A stretch of DNA of 64,000 nt from the NCBI GenBank assembly GCA_019058245.1, contig JAHPZJ010000014.1, forward strand, positions 51,085 to 115,084, written 5' to 3'. Of the stretch, positions 4,471 through 62,086 are shown in pieces. Source of the stretch: Promethearchaeota archaeon (GTDB taxonomy: Archaea > Asgardarchaeota > Lokiarchaeia > Sigyniarchaeales > SOKP01). The position numbers and the translations under genes were made by a program. Every line of letters begins with the position of its first letter. The stretch's first letter is position 1. Under the pieces are notes generated by a model, which had not been told where the DNA came from, ran no database searches, and saw nothing but the letters and a program-made list of their open reading frames with translations.

Positions 4471-5589
4471 TTGAAAGCTAATAAACTTTGGAATTTTGAA
4501 TACAACGCCCCTATTCTTGGAATTGAAGTAGTTGATATCAATAACAATGAACAATTAGAAATTATTGCTTTTACTAAAACTGGAAAGTTATTATTCATAT
4601 CACTTGATGGTAAATTGTTACATCAAGAAGTAATCTCGGAGAATTCACCACTTTGGCATATGAGAATACATGATATTGATAATGATGGAAGATATGAAAT
4701 AATAGTAGGCGGTATCGATGGGATCGTAAGAATTTTTAAATGCACATTTGCTTATAATTTAGAGCCTCTATGGACTCATAAATTTAATTCCTCTATTAGC
4801 GGAATTCTAATAGAAGATATAAATAATGATAATATCAATGAGTTAATTATATTTTCACTTGATAAAACGCTACGGGTTTTAAATTCCTTAGATGGTAAGT
4901 TAATTTGGGCGCAAATTTTTGAAGATGGTATAGGAGATGCTATCGTTTTTAAAAATAATAAAAAAAGTACAAGTAAAGAAGTACTAGCGTGTGGAAATGA
5001 CGGAACTATAAGATGTTATGATGGGAAAGATGGAAACTTATTATGGTTCAAAAAATATTCTGAAAAATTGCGAGTTATTACTTATATGAACAGAATTAAG
5101 GAAATATTAGTATTATCTGGAGGAGATGACAAAAAGCTACATTTTATAAACAAAACAACTCAAAATGAAATTAATACATTACAATTTAATAATTATGTAT
5201 GGAACTGCGTATCATATCCATTTCCAATCTTAAATAATGTTCTCGTCAGTTCTTATTCATTTGCTTTTTTTGATGAATCGACACTAATTCAAAATATTGA
5301 ATTTACTTCGAAGTTGGTTTGTTTAAATGAGTCTTTTGAAATAAAATGGGAATTAAATGGATATAATATAGAATTTTTAAAGATAATAAAAATTAATAAC
5401 ACACTTCTTATTATTGCTGGTACTACTAAAGGTGAGCTTTTGATTATTGAAGAACAAACAGGAAAAGTAAAATTTTATAAAAATTTTAATTCTTGTATTA
5501 ATATGTCTCAAGTGTGTATAGAAAAAAGGTTACTCTTTAGTTGTCATGATGATGGAACTATTATGGCCTACAAATTTCAAAAGATTTAG
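4471..5589 (+). CDS. Beta-propeller (FG-GAP/WD40-like) repeat protein
   Basis: Repeated DIxNDxxxE-II and DG-x-LxW blades, GxDGTIR motifs. Confidence 0.7.
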   Translation: MKANKLWNFEYNAPILGIEVVDINNNEQLEIIAFTKTGKLLFISLDGKLLHQEVISENSPLWHMRIHDIDNDGRYEIIVGGIDGIVRIFKCTFAYNLEPLWTHKFNSSISGILIEDINNDNINELIIFSLDKTLRVLNSLDGKLIWAQIFEDGIGDAIVFKNNKKSTSKEVLACGNDGTIRCYDGKDGNLLWFKKYSEKLRVITYMNRIKEILVLSGGDDKKLHFINKTTQNEINTLQFNNYVWNCVSYPFPILNNVLVSSYSFAFFDESTLIQNIEFTSKLVCLNESFEIKWELNGYNIEFLKIIKINNTLLIIAGTTKGELLIIEEQTGKVKFYKNFNSCINMSQVCIEKRLLFSCHDDGTIMAYKFQKI

Positions 5590-6182: not shown

Positions 6183-7151
6183 ATGTCTAAAAATACAGGA
6201 TATGTTCTAATAATTGGTTCTAGTAATCTGGATTTCATGATTTATTCTAAAAGATTTCCAAATCCAGGAGAAACTGTTACTGGAGGATCATTTAAGCAAT
6301 ATTTAGGGGGAAAAGGAGCTAATCAAGCAGTAGCTTCGGTAAGATCAGGCTCTATGACTATTTTCATTGGAAAAATTGGAACTGATTTCTTTGGTGATCA
6401 AATGGTCTCTCAATTGACAGATGAAGGAATTAATATGAATCATATTATCAGAGATTCCAAAGAACCAAGTGGAGTTGCTTTTATTTTAATTGATCAAAAT
6501 GGTGAAAATATGATAAGTGTAGCACCTGGAGCAAATTTTAATCTGAAACCAGAAGAGATTAGATCTAGAGCTCAAATCATAAAAAATGCAAATTCCATCG
6601 TGGTTCAGATGGAAATTCCTATAGAAACTATTCAGGAAATATTTAAAATAGCTTCTGAAGGGAATGCAATCAAAATTCTAAATCCTGCTCCCTTAAAACC
6701 CCTCCCAGTTGATATCTTTAGTAAAGTTGATATTATTATTCCTAATGAAGGTGAGCTTTTTCGTTTATATTCTCTATTAGGGTTTAAAGATATATTAGGG
6801 GAGAATACACAAAAAATATTCCAAATTTCGAGGGATATAGCAAATTTAGGGTTAAAATTTATCATTACAACATTAGGAAATAGAGGATGCCTAATTTTTG
6901 ATAAAAAAAATGATAAGTTTTATCAAGTGGCTACTCCAAAGGTTAAACCTGTAGACACTGTAGGGGCGGGTGATTGTTTTATAGGGGTTTTAGCTAGTCA
7001 GTTGAATAAAGGTATAGATATTGTAAATGCTGCTAAATTTGCCACGGTAGCAGCCTCTATTGCTGTTACTAGAAAAGGAGCGCAAGAATCAATGCCTTTT
7101 TCAAATGAAATTCATAATAAATTAAAAGATTTGAATTTAAATAATAACTAA
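6183..7151 (+). CDS. rbsK: Ribokinase (PfkB family)
   Basis: GGKGANQAVA, ILNPAP, PNEGE, DTVGAGDCF. Confidence 0.9.
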   Translation: MSKNTGYVLIIGSSNLDFMIYSKRFPNPGETVTGGSFKQYLGGKGANQAVASVRSGSMTIFIGKIGTDFFGDQMVSQLTDEGINMNHIIRDSKEPSGVAFILIDQNGENMISVAPGANFNLKPEEIRSRAQIIKNANSIVVQMEIPIETIQEIFKIASEGNAIKILNPAPLKPLPVDIFSKVDIIIPNEGELFRLYSLLGFKDILGENTQKIFQISRDIANLGLKFIITTLGNRGCLIFDKKNDKFYQVATPKVKPVDTVGAGDCFIGVLASQLNKGIDIVNAAKFATVAASIAVTRKGAQESMPFSNEIHNKLKDLNLNNN

Positions 7152-7159
7152 AAGGTTTA

Positions 7160-7840
7160 ATGAAGGTGTATACAGAATATATCCCCATTCAAAGAAGTAC
7201 TTTGTTGAGGAAGACAGATATTAAGGAATTAGTAATTAAAATAGATCAAAAACATCTAAAGGATATATTCTTAATTAATGGTTCAAATTTTAAAACTGAA
7301 GCAATAAAAACTTCAGATTTATTAATTAAACCTTATACTCATTACATGATAATAAATAGGGGAAAAGATATACTTGATATTCAATATAATCAAGACATCT
7401 TTGATCATCAAGTAATATATGATCCTTATAAATATGAATCATCCCAGAAGAAGTTTTTAGAACCAAATTGGTTTATAGAAAGATATAGTATCCCGAAAGG
7501 ATATATTGATACACTTCCCAAGTGGTATAGCTTTAAATTTACTTATCCCGATTATAATTTGATATTTGTTCGACCAGAATTTGGGCTTTCCATCCAAATC
7601 CATAAACATAGAAATGAAACATGGGAATTATTAGAAGGTAAACCTATTATAATTACAGGAAATACCGTACATTATTTTGTTGAAACGGGCTTTATATGTC
7701 AAAATCATATTAATACTTACCATTCTATCATTAATCCTAATAAAGAAGAAGATAAATATGTACTGATAAAAGAAAGATGGAACGGAGATTTTGATGAAAG
7801 TGATATAGATCGCGTTTTTAATCCAAATGAGTATCAATAA
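7160..7840 (+). CDS. Cupin protein, mannose-6-phosphate isomerase type II C-terminal-like
   Basis: LSIQIHKHRNETW...H...ESDIDR motif. Confidence 0.55.
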   Translation: MKVYTEYIPIQRSTLLRKTDIKELVIKIDQKHLKDIFLINGSNFKTEAIKTSDLLIKPYTHYMIINRGKDILDIQYNQDIFDHQVIYDPYKYESSQKKFLEPNWFIERYSIPKGYIDTLPKWYSFKFTYPDYNLIFVRPEFGLSIQIHKHRNETWELLEGKPIIITGNTVHYFVETGFICQNHINTYHSIINPNKEEDKYVLIKERWNGDFDESDIDRVFNPNEYQ

Positions 7841-8068
7841 TAAATTTCTACTAGTAAATGAAGTAGATAAAAAGGCGTTTCTTATTTTAGGAATAAACAA
7901 AAGTGAGATTTTCTTCAAAATTACATCTAACACTTATAAGTTTTATGATTTTTGCGTGCTTAACCTAAAAGTTAAAATTTAATTGAATACTAAAAACCTT
8001 ATCGTAATATGATTTATGAGAAAAAATTTACCAAATAATATTAATGGAATAAGTAGATTGGTTAAAAA

Positions 8069-8644
8069 ATGGCTCCAGAAGAAAAATTTGATGAAAAAAA
8101 ATCTGAAGAAAAGGAAGAAACGTTAAATAATGATTTAGAAAAAGACTCAAATTCAGAGAAAGGCACTGAAACTGAATCTGAAACAGAATCAACAGAAGTA
8201 TTAGAAGAAGAACGAGAATTAGACACAGAAGCAGAGTTAGATAGACTAAGATTCAAATATAGAGGGCATACCATTGATGAATTGAAGAAAATGAATATGG
8301 ATCAATTCATACAATTATTACCAGCCAGAGCCAGACGCTCATTAAAACGAGGCTTACCTCCTAGACAAAAAAAATTACTAGAAAGACTAAGACACGCATA
8401 TCGTGCTAAAAAAAGAGGCAAGGATTTAACTACTAGAACACATGTGAGAGATATGATCATATTTCCTGAAATGGTTGGTCTCAAAATTGGTGTTTACAAT
8501 GGTCGAATTTTTGAAATTGTTGATATAAGACCAGAAATGATTGGACATTATTTAGGAGAATTCTCTCTTACAAGGAAAAGAGTACAACACGGTTCTCCCG
8601 GAATTGGAGCCACAAGAAGTTCAAAATATGTTCCGTTAAAATGA
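8069..8644 (+). CDS. rps19: 30S ribosomal protein uS19 with acidic N-terminal extension
   Basis: [42 protein letters not shown]. Confidence 0.97.
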
Positions 8645-11757: not shown

Positions 11758-12504
11758 ATGACGAGACATGGAGGTCAAAAAACGTTAAAAAGACTAAATA
11801 CACCCGTTTTCTTACAAATTAAAAGAAAACATGGTACATTTTTTGTTAAACCAGCTGCAGGTCCACATCCTAGCAGATTTTGTTTACCACTTCTACATAT
11901 TATTAGAGACATTCTCAAGATTGTTGAAAATCATAACGAAGCAAAAAAATTAATTGTAGCAGGACAGTTTAAAGTTGATGGAAAAGTAGTGAGAGATAAA
12001 GCTTATCCCCTAGGTCTAATGGATGTATTATCCATCAAAAAATTAAATAAACATTATAGAATATTACCAGATTCTCATCATGGATTAATTCTACATGAGA
12101 TTTCTGAACAAGAGAGTGTTTTCAAATTGTGCAGGATAAATAATAAAAAAACTGTAAAGAGAGGACATATACAGTTAAATCTGCATGATGGAAGAAATAT
12201 CTTGATTAAAATTAATGATCCCAGAAATCCAAAAGAAGACACATATCAACGTATGGATGTCTTAAAGATTTCAATCCCAGATCAAGAGATTCTTAAAGTT
12301 TTAAGGTTTAAGGAAAATAATAATGCAATTATTATGTCTGGAAAAAATATTGGTCAAGTTGGAAAAATTATATCCATTTTGAAAAGATTTGGACCAAAGG
12401 CTAGTACAGTTTCAATTCAACATAACGGAAGTCATACTGAAACTCTATATGATTATACGTTTGTTTTAGGAGAAGACCAACTAGAAATTTCAATACCAGA
12501 ATGA
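11758..12504 (+). CDS. rps4e: 30S ribosomal protein eS4
   Basis: LKRL, GPH, KVDGKV, YPLGLMDV, NLHDGRNIL. Confidence 0.96.
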   Translation: MTRHGGQKTLKRLNTPVFLQIKRKHGTFFVKPAAGPHPSRFCLPLLHIIRDILKIVENHNEAKKLIVAGQFKVDGKVVRDKAYPLGLMDVLSIKKLNKHYRILPDSHHGLILHEISEQESVFKLCRINNKKTVKRGHIQLNLHDGRNILIKINDPRNPKEDTYQRMDVLKISIPDQEILKVLRFKENNNAIIMSGKNIGQVGKIISILKRFGPKASTVSIQHNGSHTETLYDYTFVLGEDQLEISIPE

Positions 12505-12601
12505 ATATATAAGAATCAAAAGAATTTTAATTATTTATACAAATAAAAATATTTAATTTCCCTCCTAATAGGAATAACAAAAATATTTTTCCTATATTGC
12601 T

Positions 12602-12710
12602 TAAAAATATTAAAGTTATTTGAGGTAAACTAAAGGTTTATTATTAACCTAAAACTTATTATAGCATAATAATGAAATAAGGGAGGGCATTCCCAAAATC
12701 TATTCGAATT
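12602..12710 (+). repeat. 109-bp inverted repeat, copy 1
   Basis: Reverse complement of 15348-15456 with 5 mismatches. Confidence 0.92.
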
Positions 12711-12767
12711 TTTACAGATATAGTATATTTATTCAACAAATTAATATTAATTTATGATAATTTCAAG

Positions 12768-14003
12768 ATGAATCATCAAAAAATAGGCAAATTAATTAAT
12801 TATTCAAATAAAACCATTGAGATTGAAAATAGTAACCGTATTGCTATTGTTAAGGTTAAGGATTATAATCCTGAAAATGTTCGAAGTGGATTATTAAGAA
12901 TCATAGAATTGTTAAAACCATCTTTTTTTGACGATGATTTGATTCATAAATCTGTATTACTAAAGCCAAATGTGCTAGCACCTGATAAAATGGCATTTAC
13001 AAACGAAAATGTGGTAGAACAATTAGCTGAAATATTAAAAAAGCAGGGTGTAAAAAAGCTTCTTATCGGAGATAGTACAATGACAAAATTAATAACAAAG
13101 ATGGCTCATAGAAAATCAGGATTGGCAGATATAGCTGAAAAACTTGGAGAAAAAATGATAAATTTTCTGGAAGATGAATTTGTTACAATATCACACGATT
13201 CATTCAGAGTATCTAAAGTGATTAGAATTCCTAAGACAGTTTTTAATGCAGATATTATAATTAATTTACCAAAAATGAAGACTCATGCAGGATATGTCTT
13301 TACTGGGGCTATCAAGAACTTTTTCGGATTAATGGAAGATAAAATATCAATGCATAAAATTTACAAGGATAAACTCTTGTTTCAAAGAATGCTGGGAGAT
13401 ATTCACCAAGCAGTTTTATGTTGCGGAGAAAAAGAACGTATAAAACCAGTTTTACATATAATGGATGCCATAGAAGCTATGGAGGGGAAAGGTCCTAGAA
13501 GCGGTAAACATAAAAAATATAATTGTTTAATAGGTTCATTCTCCCCTGTCGCTCTTGATGCATTAGCTTTTTCATTAATGGGAGGTAATCCAGAAGATCT
13601 AGAAGCTCTCAAATCTTTGTCCGAGACAAATTTATGGGAAAGGAATGTAAATAGATTAGAAGTAATAGGAGATAATTGGGAAGATTTTAAAGATAATGCC
13701 CAGATACCTCCTTTAGAAACTCTTAATTCCATAAGAACAGGAGGATCCTTAATTGAACGATTTGCTGTACCTCTTATTAGATCATTCCATCCAAGAATAA
13801 AAATAAATTCTAAAAAGTGTAAATTATGTATGAATTGTATATCTCATTGTCCAATGCAAGCATTGTATTTTGATGAAAATAAAAATAAAATTAAAGTTAA
13901 TCGCTCAAAATGCATTAATTGTTTTTGCTGTGGAGAAATTTGTCCAAATAATGCTGTACAGCAAAAAAGACCAATATCGAAATTTATTCCATTAATTAAA
14001 TAG
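12768..14003 (+). CDS. DUF362-domain protein with C-terminal 2x[4Fe-4S] domain
   Basis: VLLKPN, INLPKMKTH, TGAIKNFFG, AMEGKGP; CKLCMNCISHCP and CINCFCCGEICP. Confidence 0.88.
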   Translation: MNHQKIGKLINYSNKTIEIENSNRIAIVKVKDYNPENVRSGLLRIIELLKPSFFDDDLIHKSVLLKPNVLAPDKMAFTNENVVEQLAEILKKQGVKKLLIGDSTMTKLITKMAHRKSGLADIAEKLGEKMINFLEDEFVTISHDSFRVSKVIRIPKTVFNADIIINLPKMKTHAGYVFTGAIKNFFGLMEDKISMHKIYKDKLLFQRMLGDIHQAVLCCGEKERIKPVLHIMDAIEAMEGKGPRSGKHKKYNCLIGSFSPVALDALAFSLMGGNPEDLEALKSLSETNLWERNVNRLEVIGDNWEDFKDNAQIPPLETLNSIRTGGSLIERFAVPLIRSFHPRIKINSKKCKLCMNCISHCPMQALYFDENKNKIKVNRSKCINCFCCGEICPNNAVQQKRPISKFIPLIK

Positions 14004-14040
14004 AGTCTAAAAAGAATATATTAAAAAATTCTTTTGATTA

Positions 14041-15192
14041 TTATGCTAACACAGTTTTTAGTTTTAGCCTTTCTTGTACTCCAGGGATTTCATAATCCCA
14101 TTTTTCTATAGTAAAACTCCAATTATATTTAATTTTTTCAATTATCTCTTTTGTAAATTTATAGTTATTCTTCTTATAACCTTGAATTGATCTTAAATAT
14201 TTTTTGAGTTTAGGTTTTACCGTGTCAAATCCATTAAGATTAAACTGAGTATATATGCGATTTAATTCATATATGGGGTTTTCTTCAAGGTTTTCAAACC
14301 TTATTTCAATTAGATTCCTTTTAGGAATCAAACTCTTATTTTGAAAGTAATCTGTCATCATTTTTTTATAGATATTAAAGATATATTTTTCTATTTCCTC
14401 ATCTGATAATTTTTGGAGCATGAAAATCTGAATTGCTTTTTTATAAAAATTCTTTGTGGAAAAAAAAACAGTATAAGGATTTCGATAGATATGAATAAAT
14501 TTTGCTGTAGGAAATATTTTTAATAGAATCTTAATTCGGGATGTATTTACTGGACTTTTGAGAATCAATTGTTTCCCTCTCCAATAGTAAGTTATTTTCT
14601 TTAATAGAAAAAGATATTTTTGTTTCCATAAATTTATTTCTTTTTTTGAAAAATCTTTAAATCGAATAAAATGATCATATTGTTTTGACAATCCTTTTGG
14701 CAAGTACCAACCATTATAAAAAGAGTATGGAATAAGGTTTCCTAAAGCCATCTCTTCTTCAGTTGGGGAATACACTCTAAGTTCCATATTATCCATTGGT
14801 CGAATCTCTGGTAAATATCTCTTAAGAATTGTAAAACATAATTTATTGCTTAAAAATGATTTTGGAAAAGTTGCTTGAAGCATATCTATATATCCAAACT
14901 GAGAATCTTGACATAATAAATTTTGAAGGTGAGTTGTGCCTGTTCTCCAATGACCTATAATAAATATTGGTGGTTTTGAAAAATTAATATTATTTAATAT
15001 TTTTCGGTACCGTAAAGATTCATAGATTTCAAAGGGAGTAAAGATGGGTTTAATTAAATTAATTAAGAAAATTCTAGGGAAATAATACTTAAAATTCTTA
15101 ATTCCCTCATTCAAAAATAATTTCATCCAATTGTGAAAAGAGAGACCAATTGAAGGTCCTAATTTATTCATTATTTCATTAATTTTTGTCAT
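14041..15192 (-). CDS. PAPS-dependent sulfotransferase (Stf3-like family)
   Basis: PIFIIGHWRTGTTHL, LILKSPVNTSR, FIHIYRNPY. Confidence 0.9.
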   Translation of the reverse strand: MTKINEIMNKLGPSIGLSFHNWMKLFLNEGIKNFKYYFPRIFLINLIKPIFTPFEIYESLRYRKILNNINFSKPPIFIIGHWRTGTTHLQNLLCQDSQFGYIDMLQATFPKSFLSNKLCFTILKRYLPEIRPMDNMELRVYSPTEEEMALGNLIPYSFYNGWYLPKGLSKQYDHFIRFKDFSKKEINLWKQKYLFLLKKITYYWRGKQLILKSPVNTSRIKILLKIFPTAKFIHIYRNPYTVFFSTKNFYKKAIQIFMLQKLSDEEIEKYIFNIYKKMMTDYFQNKSLIPKRNLIEIRFENLEENPIYELNRIYTQFNLNGFDTVKPKLKKYLRSIQGYKKNNYKFTKEIIEKIKYNWSFTIEKWDYEIPGVQERLKLKTVLA

Positions 15193-15347
15193 TTTTTATA
15201 CTAACTTCCCCCCCGACCCATGAAAGTATATCGTTTTATTATTGACTGAAAATAAATTATGTAATCTATACAGAAACATTTTTGCATTACCTCAATATAA
15301 ATAAAAATTATTAGGCGAATGTCTAAAAGTCTATAAATAATTATATT

Positions 15348-15456
15348 AATTTGAATAGATTTTGGGAATGCCCTCCCTTATTTCAATATTATGATATAAT
15401 AAGTTTTAGGTTAATAATAAACCTTTAGTTTATCTCAAATGACTTTAATATTTTTA
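15348..15456 (-). repeat. 109-bp inverted repeat, copy 2
   Basis: Reverse complement of 12602-12710 with 5 mismatches. Confidence 0.92.
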
Positions 15457-15677
15457 GGTAAAAAAATCCAAAACTGTATTATAATTTTAAAAAAAAAAGG
15501 GCTATAAATTTACTAACTTCTAAATAAAAATTTACTATCTTTAATAGACTATTTCTATTTACTCAATTTTACAAAATATTAAATAAAACTTTTGTTATAA
15601 TAATAGTAATTTCGAATGAAATCCAAAGAATAAGATAAACTAATAATTAAAACTTTTAAAAAAATCCAAAATTAATA

Positions 15678-16571
15678 GTGAATGAAATGATTTTTCAAAT
15701 AGCGGATTCCAGATATCTTAACATGATACTTATTATTTTTGTTATTCTAGCATTTATTCTGGTTTTTTGGTGGAAATTAGGGAGATCCATAAAATTGGTG
15801 GAATTTCGTGTAATCGCTCTTTTTTTTCTCTCATTAGGAGTAATGATTGAGGTTGTTATGCTTGTAGATGTTTTAGGTTCTAATCCTCTTATACTCGCCA
15901 TCGGTTATCCCCTTTCATTTGCTTTTATTATTTATACGTCACTATTCATAACTAGAATTGTCTCACAGCAGCGAAAGAAAATAGAATCTAATTTAAAAGC
16001 AAGCTCTAAAGCATCGATTAATGTAGCAAACATTGCAACCGAACTCGCTGCTAACGCAAATGAAGTTAATGCTGCAGCAGAGGAAATAGCCTCATCAACT
16101 CAACAAATAGTAAATGAGAGTAAAAAGATGACAGTTTCATCCAATGAAATTAAAAATATAATGGATATTATTATTAATATTGCTGAACAAACAAACCTTT
16201 TAGCATTAAATGCTAGTATTGAAGCAGGAAGGGCAGGTGAAAGTGGAAGAGGCTTTGGGGTCGTAGCAGATGAAGTAAGAAAACTCGCTGAGGAATCAAG
16301 AAAAGTTGTAAACCAAAGTGGAACTACAATAACCGATATTATAAATAAAATTCATATAATTACAAGTTCATTGGAAGAAATAAGTGTAGCAACACAACAA
16401 CAAACTGAATCAATGGAACAAATATCTTCAACAGCGAATGATTTAGGAGAAATGGCAGAAAGATTAAAAGAAAGCTTTCTTAAAAATGTTGAAGAAATCA
16501 AGGAAAAAGAAAAGGATTTGAAGACAGATTCTAATTCTATTTATCAAAAAAAAATCATTAAAATGAATTAA
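15678..16571 (+). CDS. Methyl-accepting chemotaxis-like protein (3 TM plus short signalling domain)
   Basis: [38 protein letters not shown] hairpin tip. Confidence 0.93.
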
Positions 16572-17126
16572 CTATTGTTTTTTTTAAATATTTTAAATTT
16601 GTCGACCAAACTACTAAATTGAGTTAAAAAAAAGACCTCTTTTCATATTATTTAGCTTTTAAAAGTAGTTTTTACTTATCGATTTTGATTTAACAAAAGA
16701 CAATTGAAAATATTTCAAGAAACTGGAAATTTTAACAAAAACAATAAAAAAACAATTAAGAATATAAAAAAGGAAGTTTATTTTAATTATCTTCCCTTCT
16801 AAGAGATATATTTTTTATTATTTATCATAAAAAATAAATTAAAATAGGGAGGAAAAAACTTGTGAGCATATTAAATTTAGAGTTAAATGGAATATTATTG
16901 TTTAAATATCCTATTTTTTGATTCTAAATCTCATTCTATTATAATAGAGGCCTTGTTATACATCCTAATTTATTATATAGTAAAAAGAAACGGTTACCAA
17001 GTATTCTTTGTAATAATTTAAAAAAATTAATTAAACATGCTGAATTTTTTATCATTACATATTGAGTAGATTAAGAATAACATATTCAAATTATAAAATA
17101 TAACTTAGGATTTTTGGTGTAGTAGC

Positions 17127-17204
17127 ATGGAAACGTTATATGATTATACCTTCTTTGTAGGCAAAGAAAATTCTGAAATAGATATTCCAAAGTTAGAACG
17201 TTAA
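17127..17204 (+). pseudogene. Second copy of the rps4e 3' end (METLYDYTFFVGKENSEIDIPKLER*)
   Basis: Aligns with eS4 C-terminus ETLYDYTFVLGEDQLEISIPE; ends 30 nt upstream of rpl5. Confidence 0.8.
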
Positions 17205-17234
17205 TAAATAATGTACAGAATGATGTGAAAAAAA

Positions 17235-17828
17235 ATGTCAAGTAAATCAAAAACGAAAATTTCATCGACTCTTTCAAAAGAATTTGAAGAAAAATGGAAA
17301 AACCCTATGAAAAAACCATATCTAGAAAAGCTAGTTCTAAATATTGGTGTTGGTCTTGGGGGAGAAGAATTAGAAAAAGCAGTAAACGTTTTAGAAACGA
17401 TTACAGGTCAAAAGGCAATTAAGACTAAATCAAAAACAAATGTGAAAGAATTTAATTTAAGAAAAGGACGACCTATAGGTACGAAACTTACTATTAGGGG
17501 TCAAGATGCTGAAAAATTACTTAAAAGATTATTAATTGTTAATAATAATAAAATATTAAGAAAAAGTTTTGATAATTATGGTAATTTTGGTTTTGGAATA
17601 ACTGAACATATCTCTATCCCTGGTATTGAGTATGATAATGAAATTGGGATATGGGGTTTGGATTGTGTAGGACGAGTAGTTAGACCTGGAATGAGAGTAA
17701 AATCTAGACGAAAAGCTCGAACAAAAGTTCCAAAACATCATTATGTACAACGAGGAGAAACCCAATATTTTTTAAAACAAAAGTTTGGAGTTGAAATTGT
17801 AGAAAAATTAGAATTAGATTATTTTTAA
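17235..17828 (+). CDS. rpl5: 50S ribosomal protein uL5
   Basis: NPMKKP, KLVLNIGVG, FDNYGNFGFGITEHI. Confidence 0.97.
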   Translation: MSSKSKTKISSTLSKEFEEKWKNPMKKPYLEKLVLNIGVGLGGEELEKAVNVLETITGQKAIKTKSKTNVKEFNLRKGRPIGTKLTIRGQDAEKLLKRLLIVNNNKILRKSFDNYGNFGFGITEHISIPGIEYDNEIGIWGLDCVGRVVRPGMRVKSRRKARTKVPKHHYVQRGETQYFLKQKFGVEIVEKLELDYF

Positions 17829-17847
17829 TATGTTTAGGTGAAAAAAG

Positions 17848-17997
17848 ATACCACAAGGCAAACATTACGGCAAAGGCCAGAGAGAATGTAGAAGATGTCA
17901 TACTCATAGAGGAGTAATACGACGTTATGGATTATATATATGTAGACGATGTTTTTATGAAATTGGGAAAGATATTGGATTTAAAAGATTTGAATAA
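17848..17997 (+). CDS. rps14: 30S ribosomal protein uS14 (zinc-binding), probable ATA start; not in ORF track
   Basis: [48 protein letters not shown]; in-frame TGA at 17839-17841. Confidence 0.93.
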
Positions 17998-18024
17998 ATA
18001 TTAGAAAAAAGAGAGTGAATATCC

Positions 18025-18408
18025 ATGACAAATACCATAGCAGATGCATGTTGCGCCCTCAAAAATGCAGAAAGAGCACGCAAAAAGGAAGTTATAATTA
18101 GCCCTGCTTCTAAGGTCCTCCAACAGATTCTTCGAATATTCCAAAGACAAGCATATATTGGAGAATTCGAAAGATATGATGATGGAAGGCAAGGTAAATT
18201 TAAGATAGCATTATTAGGTAAAATGAATGAATGTTCAGGATTAATGAGACTAAATTATAAAGTATCTCAATTTGAAATGTTAGAAAGAAAATTATTACCC
18301 GCACCGGGATTAGGGATAATAATCCTCACCACAAATCAAGGTATAATGACAATGAGTGAGGCAGAAGAAAACCACATTGGTGGACATACTTTATGTTATA
18401 TTTATTAA
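18025..18408 (+). CDS. rps8: 30S ribosomal protein uS8
   Basis: YIGEFE, DDGRQG, LLPA, LTTNQGIM. Confidence 0.96.
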   Translation: MTNTIADACCALKNAERARKKEVIISPASKVLQQILRIFQRQAYIGEFERYDDGRQGKFKIALLGKMNECSGLMRLNYKVSQFEMLERKLLPAPGLGIIILTTNQGIMTMSEAEENHIGGHTLCYIY

Positions 18409-61489: not shown

Positions 61490-62086
61490 AAATGTAGATT
61501 TTAACACTCACGACAGAATAATTCTAAAATAATCGTTCTATTTTTCACACTCTTACCAGTAAAACTAAAAAAATTAAAAAAAGGAGATTTGTTCGTTTAT
61601 TATATGGTAATCTATTTTGCGTCTCTATTTCATATCTATCAACCGCCTGTGCAAATTCCCTCCTATTCAGTTTAATAGTATTTAAAGTTTTACAAACATA
61701 TTCTTTTCATTCTTTTCTTATAGATATTTTTTGAAATTATTATTGCTCTTGAAATTTAAATCCTTTACAATTTCTTTTCCATTATCATTTTTTTCAGACT
61801 CCTTTAAGAGAAAGAAATAAATTCCCTTTTTACCAATAATATATAAAAATTTTCGAAAACTTCCTGGCCATGATTTTAAATGAGATGAATCAAATATATT
61901 ATATCTTAAATTTTAAACAAAAAAAAAACCCTAGATTTAGATTTTTAATTTTTTTTTGAAAAAAACACGAGAGTTATCCAAAATTATTTCTTCAAATTAA
62001 TTAACTTTGAAAAAATTTATATGTTCTAAAAATTTCAAATGATTCGACAATAAATTTTAGAGAGCAAAATTTTTGGTGGAATCCAT

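Follow-up and report, generated by a model that had tools for sequence, protein, structure and literature searches.

An inserted cassette that supplies a replacement 3' end to the ribosomal protein gene rps4e in an Asgard archaeon

The window analyzed here is a stretch of 64,000 nucleotides (G000:C14:51085-115084) from the assembled genome under study (G000, a metagenome-assembled genome, or MAG, that is 76% complete) of a Promethearchaeota archaeon. It carries an insertion at the 3' end of rps4e, the gene for ribosomal protein eS4, within the spc ribosomal-protein operon. The insertion in rps4e is real and is not an assembly artefact. As judged by comparison with relatives, it has given eS4 a foreign in-frame end and left the native end displaced beside rpl5 (the gene for uL5), and inserts occupy the same site in five further host lineages. 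We see an even chance that the insert in G000 belongs to a family of rps4e 3' cassettes of Loki-type Asgard archaea that are integrase-free, homing-endonuclease-like and driven by recombination, and that within this family it lacks the nuclease and has exchanged its cargo. G-numbers denote genomes, C-numbers contigs, L-numbers inspected loci or contigs, and P-numbers database proteins.

The eS4 open reading frame (ORF; 11758-12504, 248 aa) ends in ETLYDYTFVLGEDQLEISIPE before its stop codon. Its tail (copy 1; 12439-12504, plus strand), of a truncated EISIP(E)-stop type, appears to be cassette-borne. A second eS4 tail (copy 2; 17127-17204, plus strand) stands as an orphan, which ends in METLYDYTFFVGKENSEIDIPKLER and a stop and reads as ATG followed by ETLYDYTFFVGKENSEIDIPKLER. 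After a 30-nt spacer comes the uL5 start codon at 17235, where the spc operon resumes (spacer and rpl5, 17205-17828, plus strand; uL5 protein identity to the closest relatives, 87-91%). The 4,625 nt between the tails (12505-17129) are missing from the loci of relatives and have a GC content of 20-35%, resembling the neighbourhood. The two copies have 18 of 20 nt in common (GAAAC..TATATGATTATAC), 13 of them an exact stretch, TATATGATTATAC, that is the likely crossover core (12446-12458 in copy 1, 17137-17149 in copy 2). They agree at 30 of the first 38 nt and are 74% identical overall. Homology in copy 2 starts at 17130, and the likeness, interrupted by two 3-nt gaps that keep the frame, continues past the stop codons into the spacer. 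Four differences fall inside the eight invariant ETLYDYTF codons and every one is synonymous. A sequence-only reading of this DNA had reported both the doubled C-terminus and a shared core with synonymous differences, and both observations hold up in the ORF and in the sequence.

At all 21 same-genus loci eS4 lies directly beside uL5, with its stop 19-49 nt before the uL5 ATG and without the insert; the spacer after copy 2 falls inside this range. The eight same-order loci likewise have eS4 adjoining uL5 directly and no insert. We counted a degenerate form of the ETLYDYT motif, GARACNYTNTAYGAYTAYAC, in 54 genomes of the genus (G000 and 53 others), 50 of which have a match. Of the 53 others, 45 have a single exact match each and three more match only with one mismatch; two exact matches occur in G000 alone, in which the reversed pattern used as a control has no match. 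The duplicated tail thus exceeds chance. That the source genome is an incomplete MAG lends some weight to an assembly chimera of two strains or two loci, which the sequence-only reading had named as a finding that would undo it. The exact 248-aa eS4 is present on six Logan contigs from other sequencing runs. Five of them are identical to the window as far as 12655, and the sixth departs from it at one position in 8,297 nt. Two more Logan contigs, 100% identical to 15403-18157 and 15403-18087, span the gene for a methyl-accepting chemotaxis protein (MCP), the orphan tail and uL5. The contigs that support both junctions come from six other sequencing runs, and the 13-nt exact stretch is too short to mislead an assembler. 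Because both junctions recur in contigs of other runs, a chimera is excluded, with a probability that we regard as negligible, and the insertion stands.

The comparison with relatives points to which of the two tails is native. The native body of rps4e (codons 1-227; 11758-12438, plus strand) has a nucleotide identity of 84.0% to L004 and 83.1% to L003, the closest relatives. Its last 150 nt still group with these two loci (82.7% to L004 and 86.0% to L003, among the highest values of any relative), so that the body is native up to codon 227 and the switch lies at about codon 228. Copy 2 matches the L004 tail at 63 of 75 nt (84%), equal to the identity of the body, and at 23 of the first 24 nt. 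Copy 1 reaches 75% (L004) and 71% (L003), and its best matches among genus representatives are lineages whose eS4 bodies are just 78-79% identical to that of G000. Joined to copy 2 the body would encode 251 aa, the genus norm and the length of 84 of the 120 eS4 homologues listed; joined to copy 1 it encodes 248. The ENSEIDIP.LE type of copy 2 agrees with the closest relatives, and the database eS4 proteins closest to that of G000 (83-85%) end in ENSEIDIPNLEN, as copy 2 does. Tails of the type EDQSEIS(I/L)PELE are native to another lineage (P0131, P0187 and P0188), and the sole contig of this lineage that was inspected (L135, for P0188) has an empty site. It counts against the assignment that the tail comparisons rest on 66-75 nt and have little statistical power singly; they agree with one another and fit both the location of copy 2 just ahead of rpl5 and the purely synonymous nature of the differences. 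By these comparisons, the tail beside rpl5 is native and the in-frame tail is a foreign replacement. The earlier proposals that the second copy is the native end and that the C-terminus of eS4 has been swapped are therefore upheld, since the tails of close relatives resemble copy 2 more closely than copy 1.

The same comparisons bear on whether the insertion duplicated its target in place, with the two copies diverging afterwards. Restriction-modification genes insert with long target duplication (Furuta, Abe and Kobayashi 2010, PMC2853133), and integrase-free inserts with flanking duplications of more than 30 bp are documented in that work, the survey of which retained no archaeal case. Like the eS4 locus, these cases have an integrase-free insert of a few kb, often at a gene end, between direct repeats in which over 30 bp of the target are duplicated. 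In the published cases, however, the target is the source of both repeats, which are near-identical (PMC2853133), whereas here one copy is apparently foreign and shared between hosts. Copy 2 is closer to L004 (84%) than to copy 1 (74%), copy 1 is nearest to other lineages, and the in-frame tail type is common to distant hosts. The synonymous differences and in-frame indels, moreover, imply that each copy has a history as coding sequence. Since neither copy has the other as its closest relative, we consider duplication in place to be very improbable.

Five further host lineages, known from metagenome and MAG contigs, have an insert right after eS4. In L134, a 248-aa eS4 ending in EEQPEISIPE is followed by cargo encoding a 223-aa unknown protein and a Schlafen/AlbA_2 protein. 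The L139 locus (identical to L145) has a 247-aa eS4 ending in EDQSEISIP and a 1.78-kb insert with a MazE-like/PIN pair, after which comes uL5. Both L143 and L144 have eS4 ending in EISIP, with inserts of 4.8 and 3.1 kb, respectively, and L180/L182 has a 247-aa eS4 with the variant ending EISMP and an insert of more than 4.8 kb. The inserts of G000 and L139 alone are covered from one end to the other; the contigs L180-L184 stop before their right ends. The sequence-only reading had supposed an element family at this site, with empty sites and variable cargo in relatives, and this is what we find: the site is occupied in six host lineages and empty in close relatives, a patchy distribution. The eS4 bodies of the five further lineages are 72-84% alike, and each is nearest to lineages with ordinary tails (eS4 of 250-251 aa). 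The tails of these five are far closer to each other (93% for L143 and L144, 89% for L139 and L143, 57/63 for L180 and L143), and the truncated EIS(I/M)P(E)-stop ending is common to G000 and the other insert-bearing hosts. A DNA pattern for the EISIP tail was found on three contigs in JGI metagenomes and nowhere in the species-representative genome collection. Within the cargo of L143, a gene on the minus strand (L143:733-2139) encodes a 468-aa protein that matches the viral family phrog_27609, of unknown function, at 6e-66, which hints at a viral derivation.

Family members also share their ends, in subsets that have either left-end or right-end sequences in common, and the cargo between varies. 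In L139, L143, L144 and L180 the tail gives way to a conserved left-end sequence. At the other side, the last 200-250 nt before the orphan are conserved among G000, L143 and L144 (76-81%), the only members in which the right end is seen, and their cargo is unrelated. The right end in G000 (16876-17129, plus strand) is 79% identical to L143 over 204 nt and 76% to L144 over 193 nt, with a near-identical core of about 60 nt (window ~16998-17075) that includes AAAAAAATTAATTAAACATGCTGAATTTTTTATCATTACA. Its A-run/TTAATTAAA motif (TTAATTAAA near 17025-17033) is also found in three genus genomes, where it precedes a conserved gene by about 55 nt, and from this we infer that it is promoter-like. The right-end region has no second copy in the remainder of G000; its motif has no exact match in viral contigs or the species-representative genome collection, and only short promoter-like partial matches in genus genomes. 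A conserved small ORF in the right end was considered and set aside, as reading-frame lengths vary among members and the region is probably not coding. Both L143 and L144 have a second eS4 fragment, from codon 167, at the far end of the insert. The L143 orphan (codons 167-223) is 82-84% identical to G000 and L134 and the in-frame copy 76-79%, so that by this measure the orphan is native-like and the in-frame copy is not. After one and the same conserved right end, the duplicated stretch begins at codon 167 in L143 and L144 and at codon 228 in G000; in L143 it covers at least 170 nt, up to the contig end.

These features decide in part between modes of integration. Some integrative elements insert at gene 3' ends and bring a replacement end, among them tRNA-targeting islands and the streptococcal integrative and conjugative elements (ICEs) at rplL or rpsI; CIMEs are integrase-less, cis-mobilisable derivatives of streptococcal ICEs. 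The sequence-only reading placed the insert with such elements, as a family using rps4e as attB for a tyrosine integrase, and expected integrase-bearing versions at the rps4e-rpl5 junction. Use of the site by a family is borne out; integration at an att site is not, and no integrase-bearing version is seen among the six insert lineages, of which G000 and L139 have inserts in full view. No recombinase or integrase was detected by Pfam in the G000 insert, nor any recombinase by Pfam, NCBIfam or PHROG in the cargo of G000, L134, L139, L143 and L144, nor among precomputed Pfam calls for the L180-L184 genes. The whole G000 assembly has one tyrosine recombinase (PF00589, Xer-like), on contig C24 and so off the island contig, and no match to the serine recombinase family PF00239. 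An integrase might instead be encoded elsewhere, by a helper virus, plasmid or autonomous relative, and join an attP carrying an eS4 end to attB, the inserts then being satellites or decayed elements. The single specific target gene, the conserved cassette ends and, in G000, an exact core of 13 nt that is sharply bounded on the left are in keeping with this, as are several cargo ORFs without a known family. The inserts also share with integrative elements a foreign in-frame end that displaces the native one, a hallmark of such elements, and the existence of non-autonomous derivatives. Unlike those elements, the eS4 members seen have no tyrosine or serine recombinase, although only two inserts are complete in view, and their arms are long, diverged along their whole length and variable in extent. 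A short att core fixed at one position is not found, given the different repeat starts in G000 and in L143/L144 and the lack of a repeat in L139. As noted, neither viral contigs nor the species-representative collection contain an exact match to the right-end motif. We regard site-specific integration as unlikely.

A candidate for another driving activity is ORF-X, a 669-aa gene that lies convergent with eS4 after the left end in L143 (L143:2901-4910) and again in L180-L184 (76% identical), with parts or remnants in L134, L144 and L139. The database protein P0242 is likewise 76% identical to the L143 copy. The protein has about six 65-aa repeats, a helix-turn-helix (HTH), and a conserved C-terminal domain of about 230 aa, which an exhaustive HMMER search found in 98 representative clusters. 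Homologues have HTH arrays, NUMOD1 or DUF4379 zinc ribbons ahead of the C-terminal domain. An AlphaFold (AF2) model of this domain has a pLDDT of 90.9, and a wider structural search returned almost only PD-(D/E)xK nucleases (EcoRII-C, McrC, Bse634I, Can2, PspGI, Bax1 and BamHI). The alignment keeps D64, D106, T108 and K119/K122. Thus ORF-X is probably a sequence-specific nuclease with a predicted restriction-endonuclease-like domain. Set against this, the structural matches are middling (Z 5-6 at most), a Foldseek search with the model gave nothing significant, the catalytic motif is atypical (D...DxT...K), and the assignment leans on structural scores and domain company.

The ORF-X domain is present in 32 of 53 genus genomes and absent from the G000 assembly. 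Only the close ORF-X subfamily is tied to eS4, and the wider family is not generally linked to insertion scars. At four loci in four species (L170-L173: G068:C29, G004:C112, G043:C71 and G069:C16), ORF-X-family genes of 750-980 aa lie beside an ORF of about 725 aa, a possible two-gene system, perhaps for defence, with a nuclease-like domain. At another locus (L174, G012:C47), a gene at 6917-8341 is convergent with an ORF-X homologue, and an orphan of its first 24 codons (92%) lies 1.4 kb upstream, at 5490-5561; this may be a further carrier with a different target.

The long, variable-length and diverged arms, the lack of an integrase, and the presence of a DNA-binding, restriction-endonuclease-like gene favour homologous recombination or homing over att-site integration. 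A complete member, as in L143 and also L180-L184, would consist of its own eS4 3' end (EIS(I/M)P-stop), the left end, ORF-X, variable cargo and a right end of about 220 nt. It would enter by homologous recombination between the eS4 fragment of the cassette and the chromosomal eS4 end, in a Campbell ("ends-in") geometry, so that the gene would now finish in the tail of the cassette and its native end would come to lie beyond the cassette, before rpl5. ORF-X would cut cassette-free eS4 alleles and so drive the recombination, as in intron-less homing, both the activity and the target being conjectural. The right end would bear an outward promoter that keeps rpl5 and the genes downstream expressed. 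In G000, ORF-X would have been lost, and the cargo is the set found at the gene VIT1 in another species, G045. The direction of transfer is likewise presumed. Several observations weigh against this account. The 13-nt identical stretch is short for homologous recombination, and neither tblastn nor a profile search found ORF-X in the 76%-complete G000 assembly. In L139 there is no orphan tail above shuffled controls and no right end was detected. The G000 tail is just 77-82% identical to other cassette tails, near the 78-84% of the eS4 body, and the chief grounds for counting G000 as a member are the right end, the EISIPE ending and a match of 33/36 to L134 in the last 36 nt. In ten ORF-X-family loci of the genus screened for duplicated gene ends, an orphan was near just one, and four ORF-X-family genes occupy a conserved, apparently vertical locus; as most genes of the family lie away from duplicated ends, ORF-X could be ordinary defence cargo.

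The cargo of the G000 insert ties it to this second context. Pfam agrees with the sequence-only reading that DUF362, sulfotransferase and MCP genes and no integrase lie between the tails. The genes encode a DUF362 protein with a 4Fe-4S dicluster domain (12768-14003, plus strand; PF04015, 1.3e-44; Fer4_10, 3e-10), a sulfotransferase (14041-15192, minus strand; Sulfotransfer_3, PF13469, 7e-31), and a short protein with an MCP signalling domain (15678-16571, plus strand; MCPsignal, PF00015, 1.7e-29). The MCP protein from its GTG start is not on record by exact look-up, gene callers having taken a shorter start. In G045 the same three genes (DUF362 78%, sulfotransferase 80% and MCP 78% aa identity) are not near the ribosomal operon but form an insertion at the 5' end of the VIT1 iron-transporter gene (L056, G045:C115). 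On both sides of this island stands a direct repeat of 65 nt (93% over 45 nt, 21 nt exact; 8562-8626 and 12861-12925 in L056) that covers the VIT1 promoter and gene start, so a replacement gene start is supplied here. The distal copy is closer to the promoter region of relatives, which again fits Campbell geometry. Gene order in G045 equals that in G000 once the DUF362-sulfotransferase block, which has the opposite orientation relative to the MCP gene, is inverted, and this two-gene block has a third context in L095/L096 (sulfotransferase 73% identical). In G000 the convergent DUF362-sulfotransferase pair is bracketed by an inverted repeat, with a left arm of 125 nt upstream of the DUF362 gene (12597-12721, plus strand) and a right arm upstream of the sulfotransferase gene (15337-15461, minus strand). 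The arms are 90% complementary (95% over 109 nt) and have no other copies in the genome. The independent contigs break at 12655 in the left arm and 15403 in the right arm, which are mirror positions in the repeat. The bracketed segment could be capable of inversion; alternatively, the repeat may represent a shared regulatory leader. PADLOC gave only weak partial matches on the cargo, and an Rfam search of the island (12400-17300, E up to 1) returned no match. Splicing of the island in the manner of tRNA introns (at a bulge-helix-bulge, BHB) was rejected, as pairing of the junction regions was not better than in 41 of 300 shuffles.

Orphan gene ends are not confined to rps4e in this genome. A genome-wide screen of G000 gave about 15 more candidates, on the same strand as the intact gene, 0.5-23 kb from it and in the expected geometry (for example, C26:55449-56507, C29:60199-61860, C28:207574-208542, C13:382399-384480 and C21:2805-3992), some of which may be broken paralogues. 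An island on contig C6 (G000:C6:129575-135820, L086) extends for 4.6 kb after a Pyr_redox_2 gene and contains one 1335-aa ORF with a C-terminal winged HTH. Its repeat is 215 nt long and diverged, with a 52-nt exact core. Relative to island-free relatives, the orphan tail is 88-90% identical, the in-frame tail 77-78% and the gene body 85-87%; thus, as at eS4, the copies are not mutual closest relatives, here over 171 nt. This island is shared with G024 (G024:C11, L142), where it is truncated, and is vertically inherited. Between the two genomes the orphan tail has five differing sites, all synonymous, and looks constrained; the in-frame tail has 14 changed codons. Just beyond the window end, a GH57 gene (G000:C14:115937-117142) has orphans of both its ends. 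The first ~20 codons recur 3.2 kb upstream (window 61596-61662; G000:C14:112680-112746), across a gap that holds a gene for a leucine-rich-repeat protein. The last ~35 codons recur 12.6 kb downstream (G000:C14:129710-129826), across a gap with genes for a histidine kinase, a response regulator, AFOR, 4-HFC-P synthase and a small GTPase. No mobility gene is present in the C6 island or the GH57 gaps.

Such ends make it conceivable that the eS4 cassettes spread passively, a repeat-flanked island having arisen once and moving as linear or circular DNA through its eS4 arms by host homologous recombination, with ORF-X as defence cargo. In agreement with this, the other orphan ends lie beside ordinary genes of G000 with no mobility gene near, the C6 island is inherited vertically, the same cargo stands at VIT1 in G045 with its own repeat (45-65 nt), and most ORF-X homologues are not at duplicated ends. 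Passive spread leaves unexplained why close ORF-X relatives (62-76% identical, or remnants) should directly adjoin the eS4 tail in five lineages with eS4 differences of 20-27%, and why conservation is higher at the cassette ends than in the host gene. We consider it unlikely.

For homing-driven cassettes, the nearest documented pattern is in fungal mitochondria, where free-standing homing-endonuclease ORFs lie between duplicated C-termini of atp6 or cob (PMC6279837). As there, an endonuclease-type ORF would lie past the 3' end of an essential gene, with the C-terminal part doubled, ORFs between the copies, and no integrase; spread in the fungal case is thought to occur via break repair and recombination. 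The eS4 cassettes differ in their archaeal chromosomal setting and in their target inside the spc operon. The putative nuclease is PD-(D/E)xK-like behind an HTH-repeat array, not LAGLIDADG or GIY-YIG, and the cassettes carry kilobases of unrelated cargo together with a conserved right end. The mobile ORF of Allomyces atp6 is a further example of the atp6 type. In phage T4, the free-standing site-specific nucleases Seg and Mob cut the nuclease-less allele and co-convert flanking markers (intron-less homing). They resemble the proposed system in that a nuclease between genes would promote its own inheritance, and differ from it in lacking a gene-end duplication or large cargo and in residing in phage genomes. 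Asgard genomes are large and rich in transferred genes, and to our knowledge few Asgard mobile elements, and few of their integrases, have been described. Aloposons (PMC8813620) integrate at tRNA genes and carry giant genes, and hence are not this element. We rate the eS4 cassettes as a variation on known kinds of gene-end-replacing elements, notable for the host, the target and the candidate nuclease.

The cassette at eS4 swaps its cargo and recurs in hosts with divergent eS4. It also brings to light a candidate nuclease, ORF-X, which would be sequence-specific and would bind DNA through a modular array of HTH repeats; its likely target is defined, so that the candidate can be tested directly. 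Annotators of these MAGs should be aware that a core gene may have a xenologous 3' end, and that the border of an island can be recognized by a short "orphan" gene end. More tentatively, and with more doubt than confidence, we suggest that Asgard archaea may harbour undescribed integrase-free, nuclease-driven "gene-end-replacing" carriers. These would home into essential genes with a recoded end and an outward promoter and shuttle cargo between species, with modules moving between carriers at eS4 and VIT1. If true, such carriers would account for the many orphan gene ends in these genomes, and the cargo that they shuttle would include metabolic genes, chemoreceptors, toxin-antitoxin pairs and defence genes.

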